Part shown: positions 9,643-45,724 of the stretch, one piece after another
Layout of the letters: each line of letters opens with the position of its first letter
How positions within the stretch are numbered: position 1 is the stretch's first letter
Assembly (NCBI GenBank): GCA_023485865.1
Contig: JAMCZC010000002.1
Span: 1,000 to 64,999, forward strand
Direction: 5' to 3'
DNA from: Patescibacteria group bacterium
GTDB taxonomy: Bacteria; Patescibacteriota; Microgenomatia; Levybacterales; UBA12049
DNA length: 64,000 bases
Notes under the pieces: generated by a model
What the model saw: the letters and a program-made list of their open reading frames with translations, nothing else
Told to the model about the DNA's origin: nothing
Database searches by the model: none
Position numbers and translations under genes: made by a program

Positions 9643-9716
9643 GCTCTCGTAGCTCAGCTGGATAGAGCGCGACGTTGCGGACGTCGAGGCCGAAGGTTCG
9701 AATCCTTTCGAGAGCG
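9643..9716 (+). tRNA. tRNA-Arg (anticodon GCG)
   Basis: Manual cloverleaf. Acceptor GCTCTCG/CGAGAGC, D-stem GCTC/GAGC, anticodon stem CGACG/CGTCG with loop TTGCGGA (U33, G37). A20 present (Arg identity element). T-arm GAAGG-TTCGAAT-CCTTT, discriminator G. No CCA encoded. Confidence 0.75.
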
Positions 9717-9720
9717 CTAG

Positions 9721-9807
9721 GGAGGAGTGCAAGAGCGGTTTATTTGGCCGGTTTCGAAAACCGAGCGGGTCGTAAGACTCACACAGGTTCAAATCCTGTC
9801 TCCTCCG
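9721..9807 (+). tRNA. tRNA-Ser (anticodon CGA), type II
   Basis: Acceptor GGAGGAG/CTCCTCC. Anticodon loop TTCGAAA. Long variable arm. T-arm ACAGG-TTCAAAT-CCTGT. Closely resembles E. coli tRNA-Ser(CGA). Confidence 0.8.
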
Positions 9808-9808
9808 C

Positions 9809-10237
9809 ATGAAGTTTCAATTTTCAGCGGGCGGAGTAGTTTATAAGAAAAAAAACGGCGAGACTTTTATTTTGGTTGCCCAGCATTCCCAACATCACGG
9901 CTGGGTTTTCCCAAAAGGATTAATCGGCGATCATGTTGAAAACGAAGATAAAAACGAAACCGCCTTAAGGGAAGTTGAGGAAGAAACCGGAGTCCGTGGT
10001 AAAATTATAAAAACATTAAGCCCTACCGACTATTGGTATGTTTTTGAAGGCGAAAAAATAAAGAAAACAGTTTATTATTATTTAATGACTGTTGTTTCCG
10101 AAGACATAACGAAACATGACAAAGAAATGGAAAACGTAGAATGGCTATCTGCCGAAAAGGTGGAACAAAGATTAACCTATCCATCTGAAAAAAGAGTCTG
10201 GCAGGAAGCCTTAAAAATTTTAAATTTGAAATTTTAA
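9809..10237 (+). CDS. NUDIX hydrolase
   Basis: 142 aa. Nudix box GDHVENEDKNETALREVEEETGV (GX5EX7REUXEEXGU). Starts 2 nt after the tRNA-Ser. Confidence 0.8.
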   Translation: MKFQFSAGGVVYKKKNGETFILVAQHSQHHGWVFPKGLIGDHVENEDKNETALREVEEETGVRGKIIKTLSPTDYWYVFEGEKIKKTVYYYLMTVVSEDITKHDKEMENVEWLSAEKVEQRLTYPSEKRVWQEALKILNLKF

Positions 10238-10253
10238 ATTTGAAATTGAACTT

Positions 10254-10340
10254 GGTGGGATGTCCGAGTGGTTTAAGGAGCACGCTTGGAGAGCGTGTAT
10301 GGTCGCAAGATCATCCCGGGTTCGAATCCCGGTCCCACCG
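10254..10340 (+). tRNA. tRNA-Ser (anticodon GGA), type II
   Basis: GGTGGGA...TCCCACC acceptor. Anticodon stem-loop CACGC-TTGGAGA-GCGTG. Long variable arm. T-arm CCGGG-TTCGAAT-CCCGG. Near-identical in layout to E. coli tRNA-Ser(GGA). Confidence 0.85.
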
Positions 10341-10377
10341 CAAGTAAAACTTAGCTGGTACGTTCGATGCACCGCAC

Positions 10378-10983
10378 TTAAACGCCTTCAAGAGGGAAAT
10401 TTTTGGATAGCCAATCGGCTGATTTATCCATAAAAGTCGGTTTAATATATTCCCTGTAGGGAAGGAAAGGCAAAAGTACGGATTTAACGTGTTCTTCGCT
10501 TATATCTCCCAAAGTTATTGTTAACTCGCCCGGTATAAAAGCATGGGTTCTGACGTGTAAAATATCAATGCCATTTCTTTTTTTAAAATAAAAATCGTAA
10601 AGCTCCTGCCACAAGAAAAAATGATCTTCCACAGTTATTCCTTCAGTGCTAATTCTATAGTGAAAATCTCTGGGCGGAACAGTAGCCAGGGCAAAGGCCA
10701 CAAAAACGAGAGACAAAACAACGAGCATTAACATATATTGGGAAAAAAGAAAAAGAATTACCTCGACAAAAAGCATAATTAAAAGACTGGTTAAGTAATA
10801 CTGTTTTGTCCTTTTTTTAAAAGGCCTACCGGGAGCTGTCCAGGAAAGCAAAGTTTTAACCTCGTTTGGAACGTGATTTTGCAAAAAATCAGGAGCTCTT
10901 TGGGTTTCGTTCAGTTTTCCGCCAGAGGCGGATTTCACTTTCGCCGAGTCAGACTCGGCTTTGTTCAATTTTTGAGCAGCCAT
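10378..10983 (-). CDS. hypothetical membrane protein (two adjacent TM helices)
   Basis: 201 aa ORF with a central hydrophobic hairpin (LLIMLFVEVILFLFSQYMLMLVVLSLVFVAFALA). No recognisable catalytic motif. Confidence 0.45.
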   Translation of the reverse strand: MAAQKLNKAESDSAKVKSASGGKLNETQRAPDFLQNHVPNEVKTLLSWTAPGRPFKKRTKQYYLTSLLIMLFVEVILFLFSQYMLMLVVLSLVFVAFALATVPPRDFHYRISTEGITVEDHFFLWQELYDFYFKKRNGIDILHVRTHAFIPGELTITLGDISEEHVKSVLLPFLPYREYIKPTFMDKSADWLSKNFPLEGV

Positions 10984-11033
10984 AGTTTTACTTTATATCA
11001 ATAAAAATTTTAAGTCAACTGCGACGCTTGGCG

Positions 11034-11123
11034 TGGCGGAGAGGGTGAGATTCGAACTCACGGCTACCTATTGGCAACAAAGGTTTTCAAGACCTTCTCC
11101 TTAAGCCACTCGGACACCTCTCC
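11034..11123 (-). tRNA. tRNA-Ser (anticodon TGA), type II, CCA encoded
   Basis: Reverse complement reads GGAGAGG...anticodon stem-loop AAGGT-CTTGAAA-ACCTT...long variable arm...GTGAG-TTCGAAT-CTCAC-CCTCTCC-G-CCA. Confidence 0.8.
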
Positions 11124-11177
11124 TTAGCTTAATATTATAATTCAACTAAAGGTCGATTGCTAGAAGCTAGAGGCTGA

Positions 11178-12986
11178 CTACCTGCTGGCTCTTAAAGCGT
11201 TAATTATTACCGCAACGTCAATCGCTTCCTGGATAAACGCCCCGCCGATTGGGGGAATTAGGCCAAAAGAGGCTAAAACCATTCCCAAAACACTTATACC
11301 AATTCCCCAAAAAATGCTTTGTTTTGCAATATAAATTGTTTTTTTGGCAATATTTAGCGAATCAAGAACTAGTGAAAAATTACCGCCTAAAAAGACAATA
11401 TCGGCCGCTTCCGAAGCCGCGGTTTGTTCTTCGTTACTAAAAACCATACCAACGTCTGCTAAGGCTAGGGCCGGCGCGTCATTTATTCCGTCTCCGACCA
11501 TTGCGGTAATTTTTCCCTGTTTTTTTAGCTCGTGGATTCCTTTTTGCTTGTCTTCCGGAGCGCACTCGGCTTTTACAATGACATCTCTGCCTAATTGCGC
11601 GGCTACCTTATCTGCAGCTTCTTTTTTATCCCCGGTAAAAATAAAAATCTGAAACCCGGCCTTTTTGAGGTTGGTAATTATATTTTTTGAATCCTGTTTT
11701 ATTTCGTCTTCAAATCTAAAAATTCCGATGGATTTATTATTCTCCAAAATTTCGATTGCCATGCCGTCTGCCGATTTTAACTTGGAAAGAGTGTATTTTT
11801 CGCCGTTTACCGTTCCTGATATTCCAACCCCTACCTTTTCTTGGATTTTTTCAGCGTGGATAACATTTGCATTTTTTTCTTTGGCAAAGTTAACTATAGC
11901 TTTGGCTAAAGGATGCAAAGAGTTTCTTTCGATGCTTTCGGCAATTGCCAAAAGCTCTTTGTCCGTATAGTTTTTGGCTGAATTTTTGAATTCAAGTACT
12001 CTGGGTTTGCCAAGTGTTATGGTACCTGTTTTATCAAAAATCAGTGCCTGGGTACGGGATAGGATTTCAATGCTGGCTAACTTTTTAACGATAATGTGTT
12101 TTTTTGAGGCCGAATTTACTCCTCCCAAAAGCGCAATCGGTGTTGCAATAATTAAAGGACAGGGTGTTGCAATAGCCAAAACTGCCAAGGCCCTGGTTAA
12201 ATCAAAACCCGAGTAAATATATGAAAATCCGGTTATAATTAAAGTGACAAGAGTAAAAATTCCGCTGTATTTATCTGCCATTCTAACCAGCGGTGATTTT
12301 TCGTCCTGCGCCTTTTTAACCATATCGATAATCTTGTTGTAGGTTGAGTCCGCCTGGACTTTGGTTATTTTTATAACTATCGGGTCGCCGATATTAATGG
12401 TTCCGCTTCTGATACTGTCGCCTTTTATTTTTTCAATCGTATAGGGCTCGCCTGTTAAGGAGGATTCGTCGGTTAAGCCGGCCTCGGATTCTAAAATTCC
12501 GTCGAGCCCGATTACTTCGCCTTTTCTGATTAAGACGAAATCGCCTATTTTTACTTTGCCGATAGTTATTTTTGCCCCGGCCCTGGCGCCTGTCCCGTTT
12601 GACGGGATTTCCCACAAAATTACTTCGCTTGGAATTCTTTCCGCCAGTTTTGTCAGGGACTTTTTAGCTTGGGCAACGCCGTAATCTTCCAGGGTTCTGC
12701 CCGAGGAAATCATCAAGGCCAAAATTGAGGCAACGAGATATTCTTTGGTAATTAAAGAAACGACAATTGCCAAAATTGCAATGTAATCCAGAGCAAAGCG
12801 TTTTTTTAAAAGATTTAAGAATGTTTCCTTAAAAAGTCTGTAGCTTCCCAAAATTGTGACAAGAATGGCAATTATTACTGCGGGAGTGTTTTGCTTTAAA
12901 AGCTCTAAGGCAACATATAAAACGATGCCAAAAAGAATTATCGCGGGGACTTTGAAAGTGTTGAGCAGAGCAGTTTTGTTGTTCAT
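11178..12986 (-). CDS. Heavy-metal (Cu+/Zn-type) translocating P1B-type ATPase
   Basis: 602 aa. Phosphorylation motif DKTGTITLG, hinge GDGINDAPAL, and membrane CPC motif (ATPCPLIIATP) characteristic of P1B ATPases. No N-terminal metal-binding domain. Confidence 0.85.
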   Translation of the reverse strand: MNNKTALLNTFKVPAIILFGIVLYVALELLKQNTPAVIIAILVTILGSYRLFKETFLNLLKKRFALDYIAILAIVVSLITKEYLVASILALMISSGRTLEDYGVAQAKKSLTKLAERIPSEVILWEIPSNGTGARAGAKITIGKVKIGDFVLIRKGEVIGLDGILESEAGLTDESSLTGEPYTIEKIKGDSIRSGTINIGDPIVIKITKVQADSTYNKIIDMVKKAQDEKSPLVRMADKYSGIFTLVTLIITGFSYIYSGFDLTRALAVLAIATPCPLIIATPIALLGGVNSASKKHIIVKKLASIEILSRTQALIFDKTGTITLGKPRVLEFKNSAKNYTDKELLAIAESIERNSLHPLAKAIVNFAKEKNANVIHAEKIQEKVGVGISGTVNGEKYTLSKLKSADGMAIEILENNKSIGIFRFEDEIKQDSKNIITNLKKAGFQIFIFTGDKKEAADKVAAQLGRDVIVKAECAPEDKQKGIHELKKQGKITAMVGDGINDAPALALADVGMVFSNEEQTAASEAADIVFLGGNFSLVLDSLNIAKKTIYIAKQSIFWGIGISVLGMVLASFGLIPPIGGAFIQEAIDVAVIINALRASR

Positions 12987-12999
12987 AGAAAAGAGGACT

Positions 13000-13093
13000 T
13001 GGCGGAGGAGGTGAGATTCGAACTCACGCGAGCCTTATTCAGGCTCAAGGGTTTAGCAAACCCTCGCAATGGACCATGCTATGCGACTCCTCC
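13000..13093 (-). tRNA. tRNA-Ser (anticodon GCT), type II, CCA encoded
   Basis: Reverse complement: GGAGGAG acceptor. Anticodon stem-loop AGGGT-TTGCTAA-ACCCT. Long variable arm. T-arm GTGAG-TTCGAAT-CTCAC. 3' end CTCCTCC-G-CCA. Confidence 0.8.
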
Positions 13094-15047: not shown

Positions 15048-15409
15048 GGGGATGCATTGCATCGACAAGATTCGCACTTTAAAAACTGCAAGCCGACAAC
15101 GACTAAATGTCGCAAAACTAGTCAAAATATAAATGCTAATCGTCAAGATTATGCACGCGCTTACGCATTTGCCTAATAACAAATTCGTAATGAGCTGTTC
15201 ATAAAGTCTTTTCTCAGCGGGACTTTTTGAGCATAAATACAGTTGAGAAATTAATAAGGAGGCCGATTAGTTCCTTATCAAATTTATAATCTTGGTTTTA
15301 TTTATTCCCTTCTATTGGAAAAGAATAGAACGACTTTTAAAAGTAGAATAAGCTTGTAGAAGTTTTTAAAATGTTTTCTTGGACTCCGGTTCATTGCCGG
15401 ACATCTCCA
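15048..15409 (+). ncRNA. ssrA: tmRNA (ssrA), standard one-piece; predicted tag peptide ANRQDYARAYAFA
   Basis: 5' end GGGGAUGCAUUGCAUCGACAAG matches the tmRNA 5' consensus (GGGG..UUCGAC). The 3' end is GGACU-CCGG-UUCAUUG-CCGG-A-CAUCUCC-A, a T-arm plus an acceptor strand pairing with the 5' GGGGAUG. That pairing includes a G3:U wobble, the AlaRS identity element, and ends with discriminator A. Internal ORF GCU AAU CGU CAA GAU UAU GCA CGC GCU UAC GCA UUU GCC UAA UAA (15135..15179) ends in the typical double stop and A-rich hydrophobic tail. Length 362 nt. Located next to smpB. Confidence 0.7.
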
Positions 15410-15413
15410 CAAA

Positions 15414-36640: not shown

Positions 36641-37180
36641 ATGTCAGTCTATACAAGATTTGGGGATAAAGGTAAAACTTCTTTATACGGCGGGAAAGCG
36701 GTTTCTAAAGGCAGTTTAAGAATTGATGCATATGGTAGTCTTGATGAATTAAATAGCGCGATAGGGGTTGTTCTTACCGAAATTCAAAACCCCGGCGTAA
36801 AAAAAGAGTTGTTGCTTATCCAAAACGACTTATTTGCAATCGGCGCAAGTCTTGCAAGCAACATGGAGAATAAAAAACTTGGAGAATATTTAAAAAAGAG
36901 GGTTAGGGATTTTGAAAAACAAATAGACAGCTTATCGGAAAAGCTTCCCGAGCTTATGAATTTTATACTTCCGGGAGGGGGAAAAGCGGGTTCGTTTTTG
37001 CACCTTGCAAGAACTGTTTGCAGACGCTCCGAAAGAAGGGTCGTTGAACTTTTGGAAAAAGAGAACGTCAATAAAGAAACGTTAATCTATATTAATAGGC
37101 TTTCGGACTTGCTTTTTACTTTCGCAAGATATATAAATTACCAAGAAAAGAAAAAAGAAATTATCTGGTCTTCCAGATAA
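36641..37180 (+). CDS. PduO-type ATP:cob(I)alamin adenosyltransferase
   Basis: MSVYTRFGDKGKTSLYGGKAVSKGSLRIDAYGSLDELNSAIG matches the PduO/MMAB N-terminal signature. Confidence 0.8.
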   Translation: MSVYTRFGDKGKTSLYGGKAVSKGSLRIDAYGSLDELNSAIGVVLTEIQNPGVKKELLLIQNDLFAIGASLASNMENKKLGEYLKKRVRDFEKQIDSLSEKLPELMNFILPGGGKAGSFLHLARTVCRRSERRVVELLEKENVNKETLIYINRLSDLLFTFARYINYQEKKKEIIWSSR

Positions 37181-37184
37181 AATC

Positions 37185-37330
37185 TTTCGGGTGAAGAGGG
37201 TGGAATTCCCTCGCTGTGCCGCAACTGTATAGTCAGAACCCCGTTCTGCAAAGCAGAATTTGCAGAGAAAAATCTTCCGAGCAGAAGTGCATTTTTATTT
37301 TACACAACTTCTCGGAATGGGGAGTTTTTT
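37185..37330 (+). promoter_or_regulatory. Candidate cobalamin riboswitch (B12 element) in 5' leader of gene 37332..38444
   Basis: Contains GAGGG-UGGAAUU-CCCUC (the GGUGnnAAnUCC hairpin of B12 elements). This is followed by GCUGUGCCGCAACUGUA, matching the conserved GCUGnnCCGCAACnGUAA junction, then AGUCAGAACCCCG resembling the B12-box AGYCMGGAGACCKGCC. Called from memory of the consensus; not verified by a covariance model. Confidence 0.4.
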
Positions 37331-37331
37331 T

Positions 37332-38444
37332 ATGGCCGAAGCGCAATCTTACAATTACCAAAGACCAAGGGAGCTTGCCGATTCTAAAAATTTTGCCGTT
37401 GAGTACGCACCGATTGTTAACAGAAGAGAAATAGAAGACGATATCATTGCTTATCTTGGTGAATTCAGATTTGGATTAAAGAAATCCGATTATCGTTTGG
37501 TATTTTCTCGCACAGACGATGAGGGTTGGAGACTTCGTGACCCCCACAGGCTGGAATCAATGGCAATTAAAGCGCAAAGGGCGATAACAGAAAGAAGACA
37601 ACGGGGGGAAATTACGCCTAGGGAAACAGCGGAGGCTAGTGGTCTTAATTTTTTAGATCAACAGTTGCAAACTGCAAGCGAAGAGGGTTCAATCGTTTGG
37701 GCCAGTCCGCCGGGAGCAGAAAGCCAAGGCTACGGAGATTATGGATTCTTCTACATCGGACAAATTGGGAGAATGATTGCCAACAGAAGAGAAGTTGCAA
37801 TGACGGCAATCAGAGTTAACGGAAGAAGCCTTCCTGATTATGAAAAAGCTTTTAAAAGGTTGTCCGGAATTGACTTCAAATTTAAAAACCCGGAAGATTT
37901 TTTAAGAATGCCGGTGATTTTAAATGACAGTTTGCCTAAAGAGCTTATTGACAGTACTCTGGGTACTATTTTTCCAAATCAAGAAAATGTAAGCGACAAT
38001 TCGGTTGAATTTCAGTTAGCTATTGCAAGAATAAAAAATAGAATAGGAGAATTCATAGATTATTGTGCTTTTGCAACTCCGACCGAAAAAGCTAAAGCTT
38101 TTCATGCCTTAGAGAATTATTTTCTTGAGGTTAGAGAAGAGATTAGATCCGGAAAAACAGTTGTTTATCAAAAGAAACGGGAGTTCAAACAGTTGGTTGC
38201 TGACTATGGTAGCAGAAAAACTCCTGAAGTTAAAGGAAGCTGTCCTATCTCAAGCCAGAACCCTTTAAATAGCAGTAACATTTTTAATGGTGGATTTGAA
38301 GCTTTGAACAACCTAATAAACCAGGAATGGTTTACTTGTCCCAAATGTCATTACAAAGCAGACGGGCCGGTTGGAAATACCTGTCCAGGTTGTGGTTTGA
38401 CAAAGGAGGCTTATGCGCAAGAATCAGGGCAAATCTGCGAGTGA
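37332..38444 (+). CDS. hypothetical protein with C-terminal Zn-ribbon (CPKCHYK...CPGCG)
   Basis: ATG at 37332 with GGGGAG SD 9 nt upstream. The ORF-track N-terminal extension would overlap the structured leader. No family recognised. Confidence 0.5.
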   Translation: MAEAQSYNYQRPRELADSKNFAVEYAPIVNRREIEDDIIAYLGEFRFGLKKSDYRLVFSRTDDEGWRLRDPHRLESMAIKAQRAITERRQRGEITPRETAEASGLNFLDQQLQTASEEGSIVWASPPGAESQGYGDYGFFYIGQIGRMIANRREVAMTAIRVNGRSLPDYEKAFKRLSGIDFKFKNPEDFLRMPVILNDSLPKELIDSTLGTIFPNQENVSDNSVEFQLAIARIKNRIGEFIDYCAFATPTEKAKAFHALENYFLEVREEIRSGKTVVYQKKREFKQLVADYGSRKTPEVKGSCPISSQNPLNSSNIFNGGFEALNNLINQEWFTCPKCHYKADGPVGNTCPGCGLTKEAYAQESGQICE

Positions 38445-41358: not shown

Positions 41359-41431
41359 GGAGCTGTAGTTCATCGGTCAGAACGCGACTCTTATAAAGTC
41401 GATGCAGATGGTTCAACTCCATCCAGCTCCA
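41359..41431 (+). tRNA. tRNA with anticodon UAU (tRNA-Ile decoding AUA)
   Basis: Acceptor GGAGCTG/CAGCTCC. D-stem GTTC/GAAC. Anticodon stem-loop CGACT-CTTATAA-AGTCG with U33 and anticodon T-A-T. T-arm GATGG-TTCAACT-CCATC. Discriminator A. No CCA. Confidence 0.7.
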
Positions 41432-41523
41432 CAAGCAGATGTTCTTGCCTGCCCTTCCGAAGTTTTAACGAAGGAGGGGTTCGAACCCAAGCAGACGCAC
41501 CGCGTCAAACGCTGCTTCGCCTA

Positions 41524-42522: not shown

Positions 42523-42858
42523 ATGCTAAAAAAAGCCATCTTTATAGTTGTTGTAATCGTTCTTTTGGTTATTATTAATAACCTTGTGCGTTCCATTTAT
42601 GATATTTGGAGTAAGCAAGACTTATTAAATCAGGCTCAAAAAGAATTAACCAGGGAAGAGCAGAAAAACCAAAAACTAAAAGCGGAATTGTCTTTCGTCC
42701 AAACTCCTAAATTTATCGAAGAAGAGGCAAGGAATAAGCTGTTTTTAGTAAAACCGGGAGAACAGCAAGTGTTAATACCAAATAAATCTACGGAAAGCTC
42801 AAAAAAGCAGGAGGTTCAAATCCCTAATTGGCAAAAATGGCTCAATTTGTTCTTTTAA
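42523..42858 (+). CDS. FtsB/DivIC-like septum formation initiator
   Basis: N-terminal TM, coiled-coil, then EEEARNKLFLVKPGEQQVLIP, the conserved FtsB/DivIC C-terminal motif. Start moved to MLKKAIF. Confidence 0.55.
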   Translation: MLKKAIFIVVVIVLLVIINNLVRSIYDIWSKQDLLNQAQKELTREEQKNQKLKAELSFVQTPKFIEEEARNKLFLVKPGEQQVLIPNKSTESSKKQEVQIPNWQKWLNLFF

Positions 42859-43849
42859 CCGGTCCGACAGGGAAGATTTCAACTCGCTCCGCATCTGCCG
42901 GTTTAGGTTTTTTATTCTCAGGATGAACTTTCTGCCAAATACCCCTAAGCTTAGCATGGATTTTAAGAAAGGGAACAGCAAATGAGGCCTCATCTATTTT
43001 GCCGTTAAGTTTGTACACGTCAAATGGGAGATTCATGCCTAAGACGGTCCACACATGTCCTTTGTCTGTTCTGGTTTCTCTATTTTTTTGTTCCAGCACA
43101 TTGTAATCAAAGCCAGGCATATTGATAACTAATTTTTTTAATAATTCATAGGGTGGATACAAAAGTCCAAATCTGGAAAATTTCCATCTTCTGTAGAGAT
43201 GCGCATAATGATTGTGTTCGTGTTCGACATAAACAGGCTCTTGGTATACTACTCCGGTTGGGTGGGTTTTTATTCTTACATAATCTCTGCTGAATTTATG
43301 AGCGCCTTTTTCTTTTATAATGTCTTCAACAGATTTAAATTCAACGCCTTCCTTTCCCGGAGTTCTGCGAAGAAATGAGAGGAAGCCTTTTAAATAACCC
43401 ATTATTGATTTAGGATTGTGGTTTATCCCATCCGGATGGTTAAATAACCATTTAATTGTTCTAAAATGTGTTCCGTGCGCAATATCTATCGTTTTTATAG
43501 ATTCAGATGGTAGGGCGGCTTGAACCTCCCCCAAGGTGCTATATGCGTCTCCTTGTCTAACTATTGCTTCAGGCGGTACTTCGCGAGATTTAATATCGCT
43601 TGCCATGCTCTCGCCTTCGTTTTGATTTTGCGGCCCCCATAAGTGGCCTAACGGCAACACTATCTGCGGGGGTTTTTCGTCTCTTGCAATAGCTTGATCC
43701 GCCTGAGCTTGGTTTTCTAAAGCGGTTGCTAAATCTACAAGTCGGGTCATTAGACCTATTCCGGTTATATGTTCGCTGGGCCAATAACCGTGAGATAATA
43801 TTTTTACTCGCACTGATTCCTTGTGTTGAGTGGGTGCTTCTACTGTCAT
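42842..43849 (-). CDS. hypothetical protein (His-rich patch HEHNHYAH; possible metal-dependent enzyme)
   Basis: 335 aa clean ORF. No family recognised. Confidence 0.5.
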   Translation of the reverse strand: MTVEAPTQHKESVRVKILSHGYWPSEHITGIGLMTRLVDLATALENQAQADQAIARDEKPPQIVLPLGHLWGPQNQNEGESMASDIKSREVPPEAIVRQGDAYSTLGEVQAALPSESIKTIDIAHGTHFRTIKWLFNHPDGINHNPKSIMGYLKGFLSFLRRTPGKEGVEFKSVEDIIKEKGAHKFSRDYVRIKTHPTGVVYQEPVYVEHEHNHYAHLYRRWKFSRFGLLYPPYELLKKLVINMPGFDYNVLEQKNRETRTDKGHVWTVLGMNLPFDVYKLNGKIDEASFAVPFLKIHAKLRGIWQKVHPENKKPKPADAERVEIFPVGPVKRTN

Positions 43850-43891
43850 AGGGGGGAATTATAGCGCTGGAGTTACTATAAGTCAAATTAG

Positions 43892-43964
43892 TACCAGGGG
43901 CGAGGATCGAACTCGCGACCACCGGGATATGAATCCGGCGCTACTACCACTGAGCTACCCTGGC
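43892..43964 (-). tRNA. tRNA-Met (anticodon CAT; elongator-type, could alternatively be lysidine-modified tRNA-Ile2)
   Basis: Reverse complement: GCCAGGG-TA-GCTC-AGTGGTAG-TAGC-G-CCGGA-TTCATAT-CCCGG-TGGTC-GCGAG-TTCGATC-CTCGC-CCCTGGT-A. The 1:72 pair is G:U, not the C-A mismatch of initiators. Confidence 0.75.
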
Positions 43965-44024
43965 TTCAAAAACTATTTTATCATCTGCTTTAATTGAAAG
44001 CAATTTTATGCTACAATACACAAA

Positions 44025-44340
44025 CACGCGGGGTAGTGTACAGTGCACGTGAGGCTTAACATAATGGGCCGTTTTGATAGTAATAACAAAACAGTATTCA
44101 GCTATATCGGTGAACTCCTAAAATTTTAGGACAATACCGAGGGAAGACTCGCCTAGGCGAGAACCCGTAGAGACTACACGCTGGGCCCCCCGATTAAATC
44201 GGGGGTGAAGATATAGTCCGACACTTCAAGTAATTGAAGAAACAGATGCATAATCTCACAGGCTAGGCGCAACTCCTAGCCCCGCAACACTTCGACTCAC
44301 TTACGTTCACTCAGTGTAAGCACTTTAAGAATGAAAAGAA
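44025..44340 (+). ncRNA. Candidate structured ncRNA or long structured murD leader (unclassified)
   Basis: ~320 nt with no ORF over 20 codons. GC content is clearly above the surrounding intergenic DNA. Promoter-like TGcTACAAT at 44009..44017. At least five strong hairpins, including CUUCAA-GUAA-UUGAAG (GNRA loop), CCCCCG-AUUAAAU-CGGGGG, GGCUAGG-CGCAACU-CCUAGCC and CUCGC-CUAG-GCGAG. Does not fit RNase P, SRP, tmRNA or 6S consensus by eye. Confidence 0.35.
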
Positions 44341-44371
44341 TGAAGTGAGTTTTTATTGTATAATTGGGCGT

Positions 44372-45724
44372 ATGGATTTTAAAAATTCCAGATCTGCCTT
44401 TGGCGGAAAGAAAATTGCAGTGATAGGGGAAGGTCTGGAGGGCATATCGAGCGCTAAGTATTTAAAAAAGCACGGCGCTGATGTTAATATCTTAGACCAA
44501 AAGCAAGGAAAGGACTACCTAGAAAATTTAGATAAATACGATTTAATTGTCAGAAGCCCGGGTGTCAAGATTTCTGATTTAGAAAAGTATGTTCCTAAAG
44601 GGAAAATTACTTCTCAAACAAGAATTTTTATGGAGCTTTGTCCTTGTAAAATAATCGGAGTAACGGGAACAAAAGGAAAAGGAACCACATCCTCTTTAAT
44701 CTACGAAATGCTTAAAAAACAATCCTCCTTCGCCAAGGCTTCAGGGGATAGGGGCTTTGATGTGTATTTAGGTGGTAATATTGGTAAGCCTCCATTAGAG
44801 TTTTTGGATAAATTAAATGTTCAATCGATAGTTGTCCTGGAGTTATCTAGTTTTCAGCTTTTAGACCTTACCCAAAGTCCTCATATTGCCGTAATGCTTA
44901 TGACAACCAGCGAACATCTTGATTACCATCAAGATGTTGATGAGTATGTTGATGCGAAACGAAACATTTTAAAATTTCAAACCGAAAATGACTTTGCTAT
45001 CGTTAACAGAGATTATCCTGCCAGTAACGAATCGGATATTCATACAAACGGTAAAGTATTTTATGTAAGCACAGAAAGAAATGGATACGAGGGATGTTCT
45101 GTGAAAAAGAATGCAGTTTTTCTAAAACTAAACGGAAAAGAAGAGAGGGTTATTGACGCTTCGCAAATTCTTTTGCCCGGGAAACACAATCTGGAAAATG
45201 TCTGCGCAGCTTCTATGGCTGCATATTTGGCTGGGGTTTCGGTTCAAAATATTGCCTATGTTCTAAAAACTTTTAAAGGCCTTGAGCATAGGCTGGAACT
45301 TGTTGCGGAAGTTAACGGCGTTAAATATTATGATGATTCTTTTTCAACAATTCCAGAGACAACAATAGCAGCTATAAATGCTTTTAAAAATCCGGAGATT
45401 TTAATTCTTGGAGGATCAAGCAAAAGCAGTAATTTTAAAGAATTAGGAGAGGTTATTGCAAAAGCGGAAAATATAAAAGCAATAATAGGCATTGGGGTTG
45501 AATGGGGAAAAATAAAATCAAAAATCAAAAATCAAAAATCAAAAATCCTTTTAGTTGAAGGAGCAGATAGTATGGAAAAAATAGTCAAAGCAGCTTCAAA
45601 AATCGCCTTGCCGGGAGACTTAGTTTTGTTAACACCTGCCTGCGCCTCTTTTGATATGTTTAAAAACTATAAAGACAGAGGAAGCCAGTTTAAGTCGGAA
45701 GTTTTAAAACTTAAAACTCCCTAA
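44372..45724 (+). CDS. murD: UDP-N-acetylmuramoylalanine--D-glutamate ligase
   Basis: KKIAVIGEGLEGISSAKYL, IIGVTGTKGKGTTSSLIYEML (Mur ligase P-loop). In-frame 7-nt repeat at 45512..45548 encoding KIKSKIKNQKSKI. Start set at MDFKNS; the track start is an upstream GTG. Confidence 0.85.
   Translation: MDFKNSRSAFGGKKIAVIGEGLEGISSAKYLKKHGADVNILDQKQGKDYLENLDKYDLIVRSPGVKISDLEKYVPKGKITSQTRIFMELCPCKIIGVTGTKGKGTTSSLIYEMLKKQSSFAKASGDRGFDVYLGGNIGKPPLEFLDKLNVQSIVVLELSSFQLLDLTQSPHIAVMLMTTSEHLDYHQDVDEYVDAKRNILKFQTENDFAIVNRDYPASNESDIHTNGKVFYVSTERNGYEGCSVKKNAVFLKLNGKEERVIDASQILLPGKHNLENVCAASMAAYLAGVSVQNIAYVLKTFKGLEHRLELVAEVNGVKYYDDSFSTIPETTIAAINAFKNPEILILGGSSKSSNFKELGEVIAKAENIKAIIGIGVEWGKIKSKIKNQKSKILLVEGADSMEKIVKAASKIALPGDLVLLTPACASFDMFKNYKDRGSQFKSEVLKLKTP

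Follow-up and report, generated by a model that had tools for sequence, protein, structure and literature searches.

The segment 44027–44287 (+) of a 64,000-nucleotide (nt) stretch of contig JAMCZC010000002.1 from a Patescibacteria group bacterium (assembly GCA_023485865.1; this whole 64-kb stretch is hereinafter the window) is, we conclude with high confidence, a tRNA gene with the anticodon CAU, tRNA(CAU), interrupted between tRNA positions 33 and 34 by a 192-nt group I intron that lacks an open reading frame (ORF). An earlier reading made from the letters alone (hereinafter the sequence-only reading) had noticed here a GC-rich, hairpin-dense non-coding segment between a tRNA-Met gene and murD and had proposed an unclassified structured small RNA, a ribozyme-like element or a long cis-regulatory murD leader; it overlooked that a tRNA gene, cut in two, flanks the core of the segment. 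The element is an additional case of a kind already catalogued in Patescibacteria, and as such it marks a gap in annotation and no new RNA class. The host is a Levybacteria-like member of the Patescibacteria (candidate phyla radiation, CPR), as its MurD places it near Candidatus Levybacteria: one match, to a metagenome-assembled genome listed by NCBI as 'Patescibacteria group bacterium', is at 100%, those at 67–79% are numerous and, with one exception, the few named ones belong to Levybacteria/Levyibacteriota or are labelled 'Patescibacteria group'.

Gene structure and identity of the element

The interrupted gene has three parts:

44027–44056 (+): 5′ exon of tRNA(CAU), tRNA positions 1–33, ending on U33; obtained from the ARAGORN join, with the same 5′ half in uninterrupted genes
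44057–44248 (+): group I intron of 192 nt without an ORF, with the ωG at 44248; recognized by RF00028, covariation and the z-score of its fold
44249–44287 (+): 3′ exon of tRNA(CAU), positions 34–73, opening with CAU, CCA unencoded; with the same 3′ half in uninterrupted genes

A scan of the whole window with Rfam, a check that the sequence-only reading had itself proposed, settles the identity of the element: the group I intron family RF00028 matches 44047–44240 (+) with 78.8 bits, well over its gathering score of 50 (E = 2.4e-18), and for the window intron the alignment is complete, spanning model positions 1–253 of 253. The guess at a ribozyme-like element was thus right in kind, the element having a group I core, but wrong in calling it unclassified. 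As had been judged by eye, it is none of the common structured RNAs: RNase P, signal recognition particle and 6S RNAs are absent from the window by Rfam, and transfer-messenger RNA (tmRNA) occurs only at 15048–15412, with no overlap.

As bacterial group I introns usually reside in tRNA or rRNA genes, the flanks of the Rfam match were inspected. All 5′ ends from 44050 to 44063 were joined to all 3′ starts from 44240 to 44261 and the products submitted to ARAGORN, which called a tRNA only around a single register. The join 44056/44249, which gives a 70-nt tRNA-Met(cat), is the only one that both fits the group I rule (U closing the exon and G closing the intron) and yields a tRNA. Junctions such as 44057/44250 also produce cloverleaves (Ile-UAU, Leu-UAA), but were rejected because they leave an intron without a terminal G and a product unlike the uninterrupted homologues. 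On the unspliced region ARAGORN finds no tRNA, even when it may skip an intron as long as 400 nt. The joined exons (44027–44056 plus 44249–44288) are identical base for base to the uninterrupted 70-nt tRNA(CAU) of the syntenic loci L001, L002 and L005 (related loci are cited by our L numbers). Joining the exons thus restores the host gene both as an ARAGORN cloverleaf and, at 100% identity, as the uninterrupted gene, while the same exons flank an intron in the interrupted alleles L003, L006 and L007. The 3′ exon begins directly with the anticodon CAU. The exons have a GC content of 0.594 and the intron of 0.438. When folded, 44057–44248 reaches a minimum free energy of −59.2 kcal/mol (z = −5.05), a stability that none of 200 shuffles equals, with P2–P9 recovered from free energy alone.

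To place the element among its relatives, a locus sample was assembled from a scan of a genome collection with a 5′-exon pattern, the loci of MurD relatives and the window itself. It comprises at least 57 loci with the host tRNA, and among the matches listed 42 are uninterrupted and 15 interrupted, the latter carrying 14 distinct introns of 184–220 nt. A scan of metagenomes, which targeted interrupted alleles only, added 100 more with a recognizable 3′ exon, representing 89 distinct introns of 176–292 nt, all ending in G. Genomes and metagenomes together thus provide at least 101 distinct introns. Every one of at least 103 interrupted alleles with both exon halves (14 distinct from genomes and MurD relatives, 89 distinct from metagenomes) is interrupted after U33 by an intron that ends in G.

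Fold and covariation of the intron

The helices of the window intron are as follows:

44053–44070 (+): P1 hairpin, exon GGCU plus intron UA (44053–44058) with the guide UGGGCC (44065–44070); from the Rfam alignment
44071–44092 (+): P2 hairpin with a GUAA tetraloop at 44080–44083; double changes in 7 of 8 pairs
44097–44102 (+): 5′ strand of P3, UUCAGC, partner 44180–44185; double changes in 4 of 6 pairs, 100% paired
44107–44140 (+): P4-P5-P4′ domain, P4 being 44107–44112 with 44135–44140; P4 100% paired
44116–44131 (+): P5, the 16-nt palindrome TCCTAAAATTTTAGGA; double changes in 3 of 5 pairs
44141–44166 (+): P6 (GGG/CCC) and the P6a hairpin CUCGC-CUAG-GCGAG (44148–44161); covariation
44170–44176 (+): 5′ strand of P7, GAGACUA, with bulged A44171 and pseudoknot partner 44214–44219; invariant in 14 of 14 introns
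44180–44185 (+): 3′ strand of P3, GCUGGG; alignment parse and covariation
44187–44205 (+): P8 hairpin CCCCCGA-UUAAA-UCGGGGG; double changes in 5 of 7 pairs
44214–44219 (+): 3′ strand of P7, UAGUCC, with the conserved J8/7 GAAGAUA just before it; invariant
44224–44239 (+): P9 hairpin CTTCAA-GTAA-TTGAAG, tetraloop at 44230–44233; double changes in 4 of 6 pairs, 100% paired

All the features that had drawn attention to the segment were found where they had been reported, and most now have a place in this fold. The GNRA-capped hairpin is P9 and is accompanied by a second, GUAA-capped one (P2), while the palindrome is P5. Among the G/C stems, CTCGC/GCGAG is P6a, CCCCCGA/TCGGGGG is P8, and CTAGG/CCTAG is the T-arm of the tRNA. 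The GC content of 44025–44340, at 0.462 versus a window mean of 0.389, is elevated without being extreme, as 5.6% of 316-nt windows are as high. The lack of coding capacity likewise holds, for the only ORFs of at least 30 amino acids (aa) lying wholly between tRNA-Met and murD are two on the minus strand (34 and 32 aa). As for its extent, the structured core lies within 44025–44340, but the last ~50 nt (44290–44340) are ordinary 3′ flank, with a hairpin of z = −0.48.

The comparison with related genomes that had been suggested as a check was made on the 14 distinct introns, with the pairs of the window intron mapped onto the alignment and P7 and P10 written as pseudoknots. Because a plain MAFFT alignment misplaces the variable hairpin tips, the peripheral helices were parsed by anchors, a single set of which divides all 14 introns into P1–P10 such that each helix forms in each sequence. 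Paired cells amount to 93.3%, and double changes occur in 30 of 59 pairs (94 cells). None of 500 shuffles attains any of five covariation measures, and sliding the 3′ partners by 1–3 columns lowers pairing to 34–45%. Covariation is clean in P3, P4 (where U-A changes to G-C and C-G), P9 and the base of P6. The helices P2, P5, P6a and P8 have been replaced wholesale between lineages with pairing kept: the P6a stem is present in all 14 introns though its sequences are unrelated, and in L003, L057, L063 and L118 the P8 hairpin is swapped entirely with its pairing intact.

The same picture emerges from the larger set, 85 of whose 101 distinct introns were parsed. Here every position of P3 and P4 is paired in all 85 introns; in P9, five positions are paired in all 81 introns and the sixth in 80 of them. 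As many as five kinds of pair occur at a single position of these helices. The L9 loop is always GNAA, and, taking the first match, a GNAA motif lies in the P2 segment of 83 of the 85. The invariant core and junctions, combined with compensatory changes across about 100 distinct sequences, indicate purifying selection on the ribozyme fold.

The structural hallmarks of a group I intron are accordingly present: a P3–P9 core with the P3/P7 pseudoknot, a U-G wobble at the 5′ splice site (U44056-G44067 in P1), a ωG and a P10 helix, in which AUG 44064–44066 pairs with the anticodon CAU 44249–44251. GGCU/GGCC of P1 and AUG/CAU of P10 are invariant in 14 of 14 introns. On this architecture the split gene would be transcribed from its own extended −10 promoter at 44009–44017, and the intron would adopt the standard P1–P9 fold, in which P3 and P7 form the pseudoknot and a GNRA tetraloop caps both P2 and P9. 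An external guanosine would attack after U33, held in the U-G wobble of P1, and would presumably be bound by the P7 pseudoknot, as in group I introns in general. The terminal G44248 would then replace it and the exons would be ligated, the 3-bp P10 of anticodon CAU and guide AUG keeping them in line. The predicted product is a 69-nt tRNA body (positions 1–73), to which CCA would be added afterwards.

The host tRNA

The host tRNA, although widespread and conserved, is atypical. It has 70 nt, its D stem is of 3 bp, its 7-nt D loop (TACAGTG) lacks GG and its T loop reads CGCAACT; neither GG nor T-Ψ-C is present in this tRNA of Levybacteria. Its uninterrupted 70-nt copies (e.g., L001:3004–3073 and L005:3878–3947) are not reported by the Rfam tRNA model at its gathering score. 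The D and T loops nevertheless covary strictly among the matches listed, TACAG occurring with CGC or TGC (25 loci) and TACGG with TTC, TCC or CTC (28 loci), a pattern expected from a swap at the tertiary 18:55 contact. This suggests that the elbow has been altered rather than decayed, and argues for a functional tRNA.

We consider it likely that the host is the initiator, i.e., the formylmethionine (fMet) tRNA. The window tRNA and at least 56 related loci, hence all of the at least 57 loci listed, have the C1×A72 mismatch, G2-C71, C3-G70 and A73. The acceptor stem CGCGGGG/CCCCGCA is one that we take, from comparison with E. coli, to be identical to that of classical bacterial initiators. The anticodon loop is an initiator-like CU-CAU-AA, and in other loci, e.g., L126 and L095, the same anticodon arm recurs on tRNAs whose D arm is that of a canonical initiator. 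In the window and in the MurD-linked loci examined the split tRNA adjoins a second, ordinary tRNA-Met(CAU), which in the window lies at 43891–43964 (−), and the window also has a tRNA-Ile(UAU) nearby, at 41359–41432 (+). The same trio occurs in L001 and L005, where tRNA-Ile(UAU) lies at 1173–1245 and 1105–1177, respectively. With tRNA-Ile(UAU) nearby, no Ile2(CAU) tRNA would be needed. This suggests that the lineage decodes AUA by tRNA-Ile(UAU) and not by a lysidine-modified tRNA-Ile2(CAU).

Certain features of the host tRNA pull the other way. Its anticodon stem has A29-U41, G30-C40 and G31-U39, and so lacks the three consecutive G-C pairs of initiators. This lowers the likelihood of the initiator assignment without excluding it, as some bacterial initiators have fewer G-C pairs here. 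It also has U11:A24 instead of the initiator A11:U24, and the two published homologues discussed below have a U1-A72 pair and are labelled 'Met' or 'Met (CAT)' (PMC13011429). One could therefore view the host as an elongator tRNA-Met and its neighbour at 43891–43964, which does have G29-C41 and G30-C40, as the initiator, a view that would leave the intron itself unaffected. We regard this as a serious but unlikely alternative: the neighbour pairs G1 with U72 and has UU-CAU-AU as its loop, the acceptor-end features are constant across the loci and the anticodon arm recurs on canonical initiators, while the published label is a best BLAST hit among tRNAscan names and not a test (PMC13011429).

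Promoter, flanks and alternative explanations

The flanks of the gene carry two further features:

44009–44017 (+): putative extended −10 promoter of the split tRNA gene, TGCTACAAT; read from the sequence
44294–44357 (+): 3′ flank, a long-loop hairpin ACUCACUU / AAGUGAGU followed by UUUUUAUU; fold z = −0.48, not better than shuffles

The promoter-like box had been noted before, and we assign it to the split tRNA. Of the 57 loci listed, 38 have a TGnTAnnnT box in the 45 nt that precede the tRNA 5′ end, mostly 9–11 nt from it, and its similar distance in genes with and without an intron suggests that the element has its own promoter. Downstream, the 3′ flank hairpin might weakly terminate transcription of the tRNA; a terminator scan reported nothing after the split tRNA, and its single 'terminator' call is P1 of the intron. 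A candidate GC-rich repeat common to the tRNA 3′ flank and the 'FAKASGDRG' stretch of MurD was discarded, since a 20-mer search allowing 3 mismatches recovered the MurD copy only.

Being structured, preceded by a promoter-like box and placed immediately ahead of murD in the same orientation, the region could pass for a free-standing structured small RNA or for a long leader controlling murD. We find both extremely unlikely, as the tRNA and its group I intron account for all of the structure and the supposed leader is wholly missing from the uninterrupted alleles. Synteny in relatives and the promoter of murD itself speak against a leader in particular. In most relatives the tRNA is either parted from murD by a murI-like glutamate racemase gene or encoded on the other strand. 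Its orientation relative to murD varies (minus in L001, plus in L005); the racemase gene directly precedes murD in L001, L003, L006 and L007, comes between the tRNA and murD in L006/L007, and is absent from this part of the window. The murD gene (44372–45724, ATG at 44372) also has its own TGTATAAT box, the last base of which is 7 nt before the ATG.

The identification as an interrupted tRNA gene has points against it too. The introns of L006 and L007, clearly homologous to that of the window, are not reported by Rfam at its gathering score, indicating that the model scores near threshold for some members (that of L003 reaches 74.6 bits). The helices P1, P7 and P10 are invariant, so that for them conservation and analogy speak, and covariation in the 14 introns is neither for nor against P7. 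The 64 kb are a limited view of the genome, and an uninterrupted second copy may exist elsewhere. Published splicing assays are limited to tRNA-Asn and tRNA-Asp 35/36 introns and do not include the Met 33/34 family (PMC13011429).

These last points, together with the compactness and AT-richness of the intron (GC 0.44), of a sort that can require chaperones, raise the prospect of a real intron that no longer splices by itself, either needing a protein cofactor in vivo or being a dead insertion in a tRNA pseudogene. Set against the invariant core strands and junctions, the compensatory helix changes in about 100 distinct sequences and exons identical to those of the uninterrupted genes, this seems improbable; there is, moreover, no further copy of the split tRNA within the 64-kb window, and interrupted and uninterrupted copies of one tRNA rarely coexist in a genome (PMC13011429). 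An intron that probably self-splices could also have been retained for a purpose, and RNA-level regulation has been raised as a possible reason for retention by Nakagawa et al. (PMC13011429). In its strongest form, the intron would be a guanosine- and Mg2+-dependent, rate-limiting gate on the only initiator tRNA supply, which, if true, would amount to RNA-level control of translation initiation by nucleotide or energy state in a regulator-poor, genome-reduced CPR bacterium. We think this quite improbable, as close relatives whose exons are identical may have or lack the intron (15 of the 57 loci listed have it), which argues that it is dispensable and not an integrated regulator.

Comparison with known introns

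In a survey of 95 complete Patescibacteria genomes, Nakagawa et al. (mSystems 2026) recorded two Microgenomatia with 'Met (CAU) 33/34' introns (PMC13011429). When an nhmmer profile of the 14 introns was compared with 16 published tRNA introns, precisely these two, from GCA_001029755.1 and GCA_013426185.1, scored highest, with 120.1 and 93.2 bits. They share with the window a 70-nt tRNA(CAU) with a short D arm, the 33/34 site and an ...AUGGGCC-type guide (PMC13011429 Tables 1, S3), as well as the core strings GGCUAUAUCGG, CCGAGGGAAG, AGAGACUAYACGCC and GAUAUAGUCCG, GNAA-capped P2 and P9, and a size of 190/216 nt without an ORF. The window intron hence belongs with them on the grounds of a shared host tRNA (...GGGGTAGTGTA....GCACG.....GGCT/CATAATCT..., the slash marking the junction), the 33/34 site and a homologous intron. 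They differ in having U1 for C1, an anticodon stem of GCGAGG or GGAAGG versus GTGAGG in the window, and other peripheral hairpins. The published survey lists both without structure, covariation or a splicing assay and calls the tRNA 'Met' (PMC13011429).

The fMet introns of cyanobacteria, which lie in the same host tRNA type as read here, likewise follow U33, with P1 formed by GGCU with GGGCY and P10 by CAU with AUG. The window intron matches them in being inserted between U33 and C34 of a tRNA(CAU) with initiator acceptor-stem features. The cyanobacterial 33/34 intron was reportedly described by Biniszkiewicz, Cesnaviciene and Shub in 1994. Such introns have been known since that year and are a recognized cause of 'missing' fMet tRNAs (PMC8450103, PMC13011429); 33/34 of tRNA-fMet is a well characterized site (PMC13011429), and the Gloeobacter and Synechocystis introns are classed IC3 in Table S5 (PMC13011429). 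The cyanobacterial introns differ from that of the window in size (244–266 nt, or ~650 nt with a PD-(D/E)XK endonuclease gene), in a large L1 insert and an extended P9, both lacking in the window intron, and in their core (AAAUUCGGGGAAGCC, GAGCCAAGC...GAAGGU and GAAGGGACAGUCC). Against the 14-intron profile the Gloeobacter intron scores 30.8 bits and that of another cyanobacterium 20.6, below introns of other tRNAs. Thus, the site is shared, but a common intron lineage is unsupported.

The next-best scores, of 51–60 bits, belong to introns in tRNA-Phe 31/32 of Elusimicrobiota (60.1), tRNA-Arg(UCU) 34/35 of Bacteroidota (59.9) and tRNA-Tyr 35/36 of Doudnabacteria. They have the core strings UAUAUCGGUG, AAUACCGAGG, CCGUA(G/A)(A/C)GACUACACG and GAUAUAGUC in common with the window, but differ in tRNA, position and guide sequence and have longer P9 regions. 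As for subgroup, Michel and Westhof (1990) are said to have defined IA introns by P7.1/P7.2 between P7 and P3′ and IC3 introns by a minimal core without these. In 14 of 14 introns J7/3 has only 3 nt (CAC) and J3/8 0–2 nt, leaving no P7.1/P7.2, so the architecture is IC3-like. The textbook minimal self-splicing tRNA introns, the IC3 introns of Azoarcus tRNA-Ile(CAU) and Anabaena tRNA-Leu(UAA), resemble it in their size of ~200 nt, anticodon-loop location, GNRA loops on P2 and P9, lack of an ORF and minimal P1–P10 without P2.1, P5abc or P7.1/7.2. They differ in their sites (36/37 and 34/35), and the Azoarcus intron is GC-rich versus 44% GC here. The published labels of the look-alikes disagree, being IA3 (Phe), IC3 (Arg) and IB3 in Tables S3 and S5 (PMC13011429). 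According to that survey no Patescibacteria tRNA intron is classed IC, and the nearest outside relative is labelled IA3 (PMC13011429).

The Patescibacteria tRNA-Asn and tRNA-Asp 35/36 introns, which are of type IA and shown to self-splice (PMC13011429), share with the window the phylum, the class of element and a gene missed by annotation. They differ in tRNA and site, carry IA-type extra sequence between P7 and P3′ that the window intron lacks, and some have HNH endonuclease genes. The sole Asn 35/36 IA reference tested, an IA1 intron of Nitrospirota, scores 21.6 bits against the 14-intron profile.

Distribution and evolution of the intron

Among the matches listed, the hosts are Levyibacteriota, Chisholmbacteria, Microgenomates and 'Patescibacteria group' metagenome-assembled genomes. 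Several bins named 'uncultured Gammaproteobacteria' or 'Pseudomonadales' (L017, L025, L047 and others) also carry the Levybacteria-type tRNA. XerC/D of L017 and L047 is 76–77% identical to that of the window and MurD of L017, L025 and L047 66–67%, with a GC content of 37–38%; by these flanking genes and GC the labels are almost certainly wrong.

Across genomes ranked by MurD identity, the presence of the intron is patchy. Intron similarity roughly tracks that of MurD, an outlier being L072, with an intron 97.4% but a MurD 73% identical to those of the window; in L003 MurD is 76% and the intron only 87% identical. This pattern points to mainly vertical descent with losses, perhaps with occasional exchange. 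The peripheral hairpins are themselves mosaic, the P8 of the window recurring in L006 and its P6a in L003, which may reflect exchange between intron alleles. Between the window and L003, XerC/D is 97% identical and MurD, ~2 kb away, 76%, pointing to mosaic divergence along the locus.

No homing endonuclease was found in any member of the family, and no intron is roomy enough for an ORF. An apparent endonuclease-bearing member, L171, proved to be a chimeric 1-kb contig and was left out of the counts. In L171:1–1056 (Ga0172371_10387055), the tRNA 5′ exon and P1–P6 of the intron are fused to the 3′ half of a 23S rRNA intron that bears a LAGLIDADG gene: after a 158-aa LAGLIDADG ORF at 218–694 (−) come the 3′ half of a group I intron and 23S rRNA (AAGTTCCGACC..., approximately E. 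coli position 1917). The contig is the product either of misassembly via similar intron cores or of real recombination between tRNA and 23S introns.

Other features in the window

Next to the tRNA pair, a 335-aa ORF of unassigned function at 42842–43849 (−) occupies a variable slot between DivIC and the tRNAs; ORFs 28–36% identical to it stand at the equivalent place in six loci (L003, L005, L006/L007, L034 and L123). A near-consensus TTGACT-17-TATAAT promoter (11 of 12 matches) at 43858–43886 (−) ends 9 nt before its ATG, and the murD box falls in 44356–44374 (+); the mRNAs of both genes may be leaderless or nearly so. Farther away, an AdoCbl-II (cobalamin) riboswitch at 37171–37251 (+; 46.4 bits versus a gathering score of 36.5) overlaps the end of a 179-aa ORF (36641–37180), which by eye only resembles corrinoid adenosyltransferases of the PduO type; 9 nt beyond the riboswitch begins a 394-aa ORF of unassigned function (37260–38444). 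The tmRNA at 15048–15412 (+), with 118.5 bits, encodes the tag peptide ANRQDYARAYAFA, and a cluster of five tRNA genes, one for Arg and four for Ser, spans 9643–13093.

Significance

The organism probably has no initiator tRNA gene other than the split one. Since standard tools miss it, such genomes would be scored as lacking an essential tRNA, which distorts inferences on the completeness and tRNA sets of CPR bacteria. The family is common in CPR bacteria of the Microgenomatia type, far more so than the two published cases suggest, with at least 15 of the 57 loci listed interrupted and at least 101 distinct introns in all, and it offers a set of compact (176–292 nt) natural group I ribozymes with rich covariation. 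If the intron self-splices and the host tRNA is the initiator, as we propose, translation initiation in these reduced genomes would depend on RNA-catalysed maturation.

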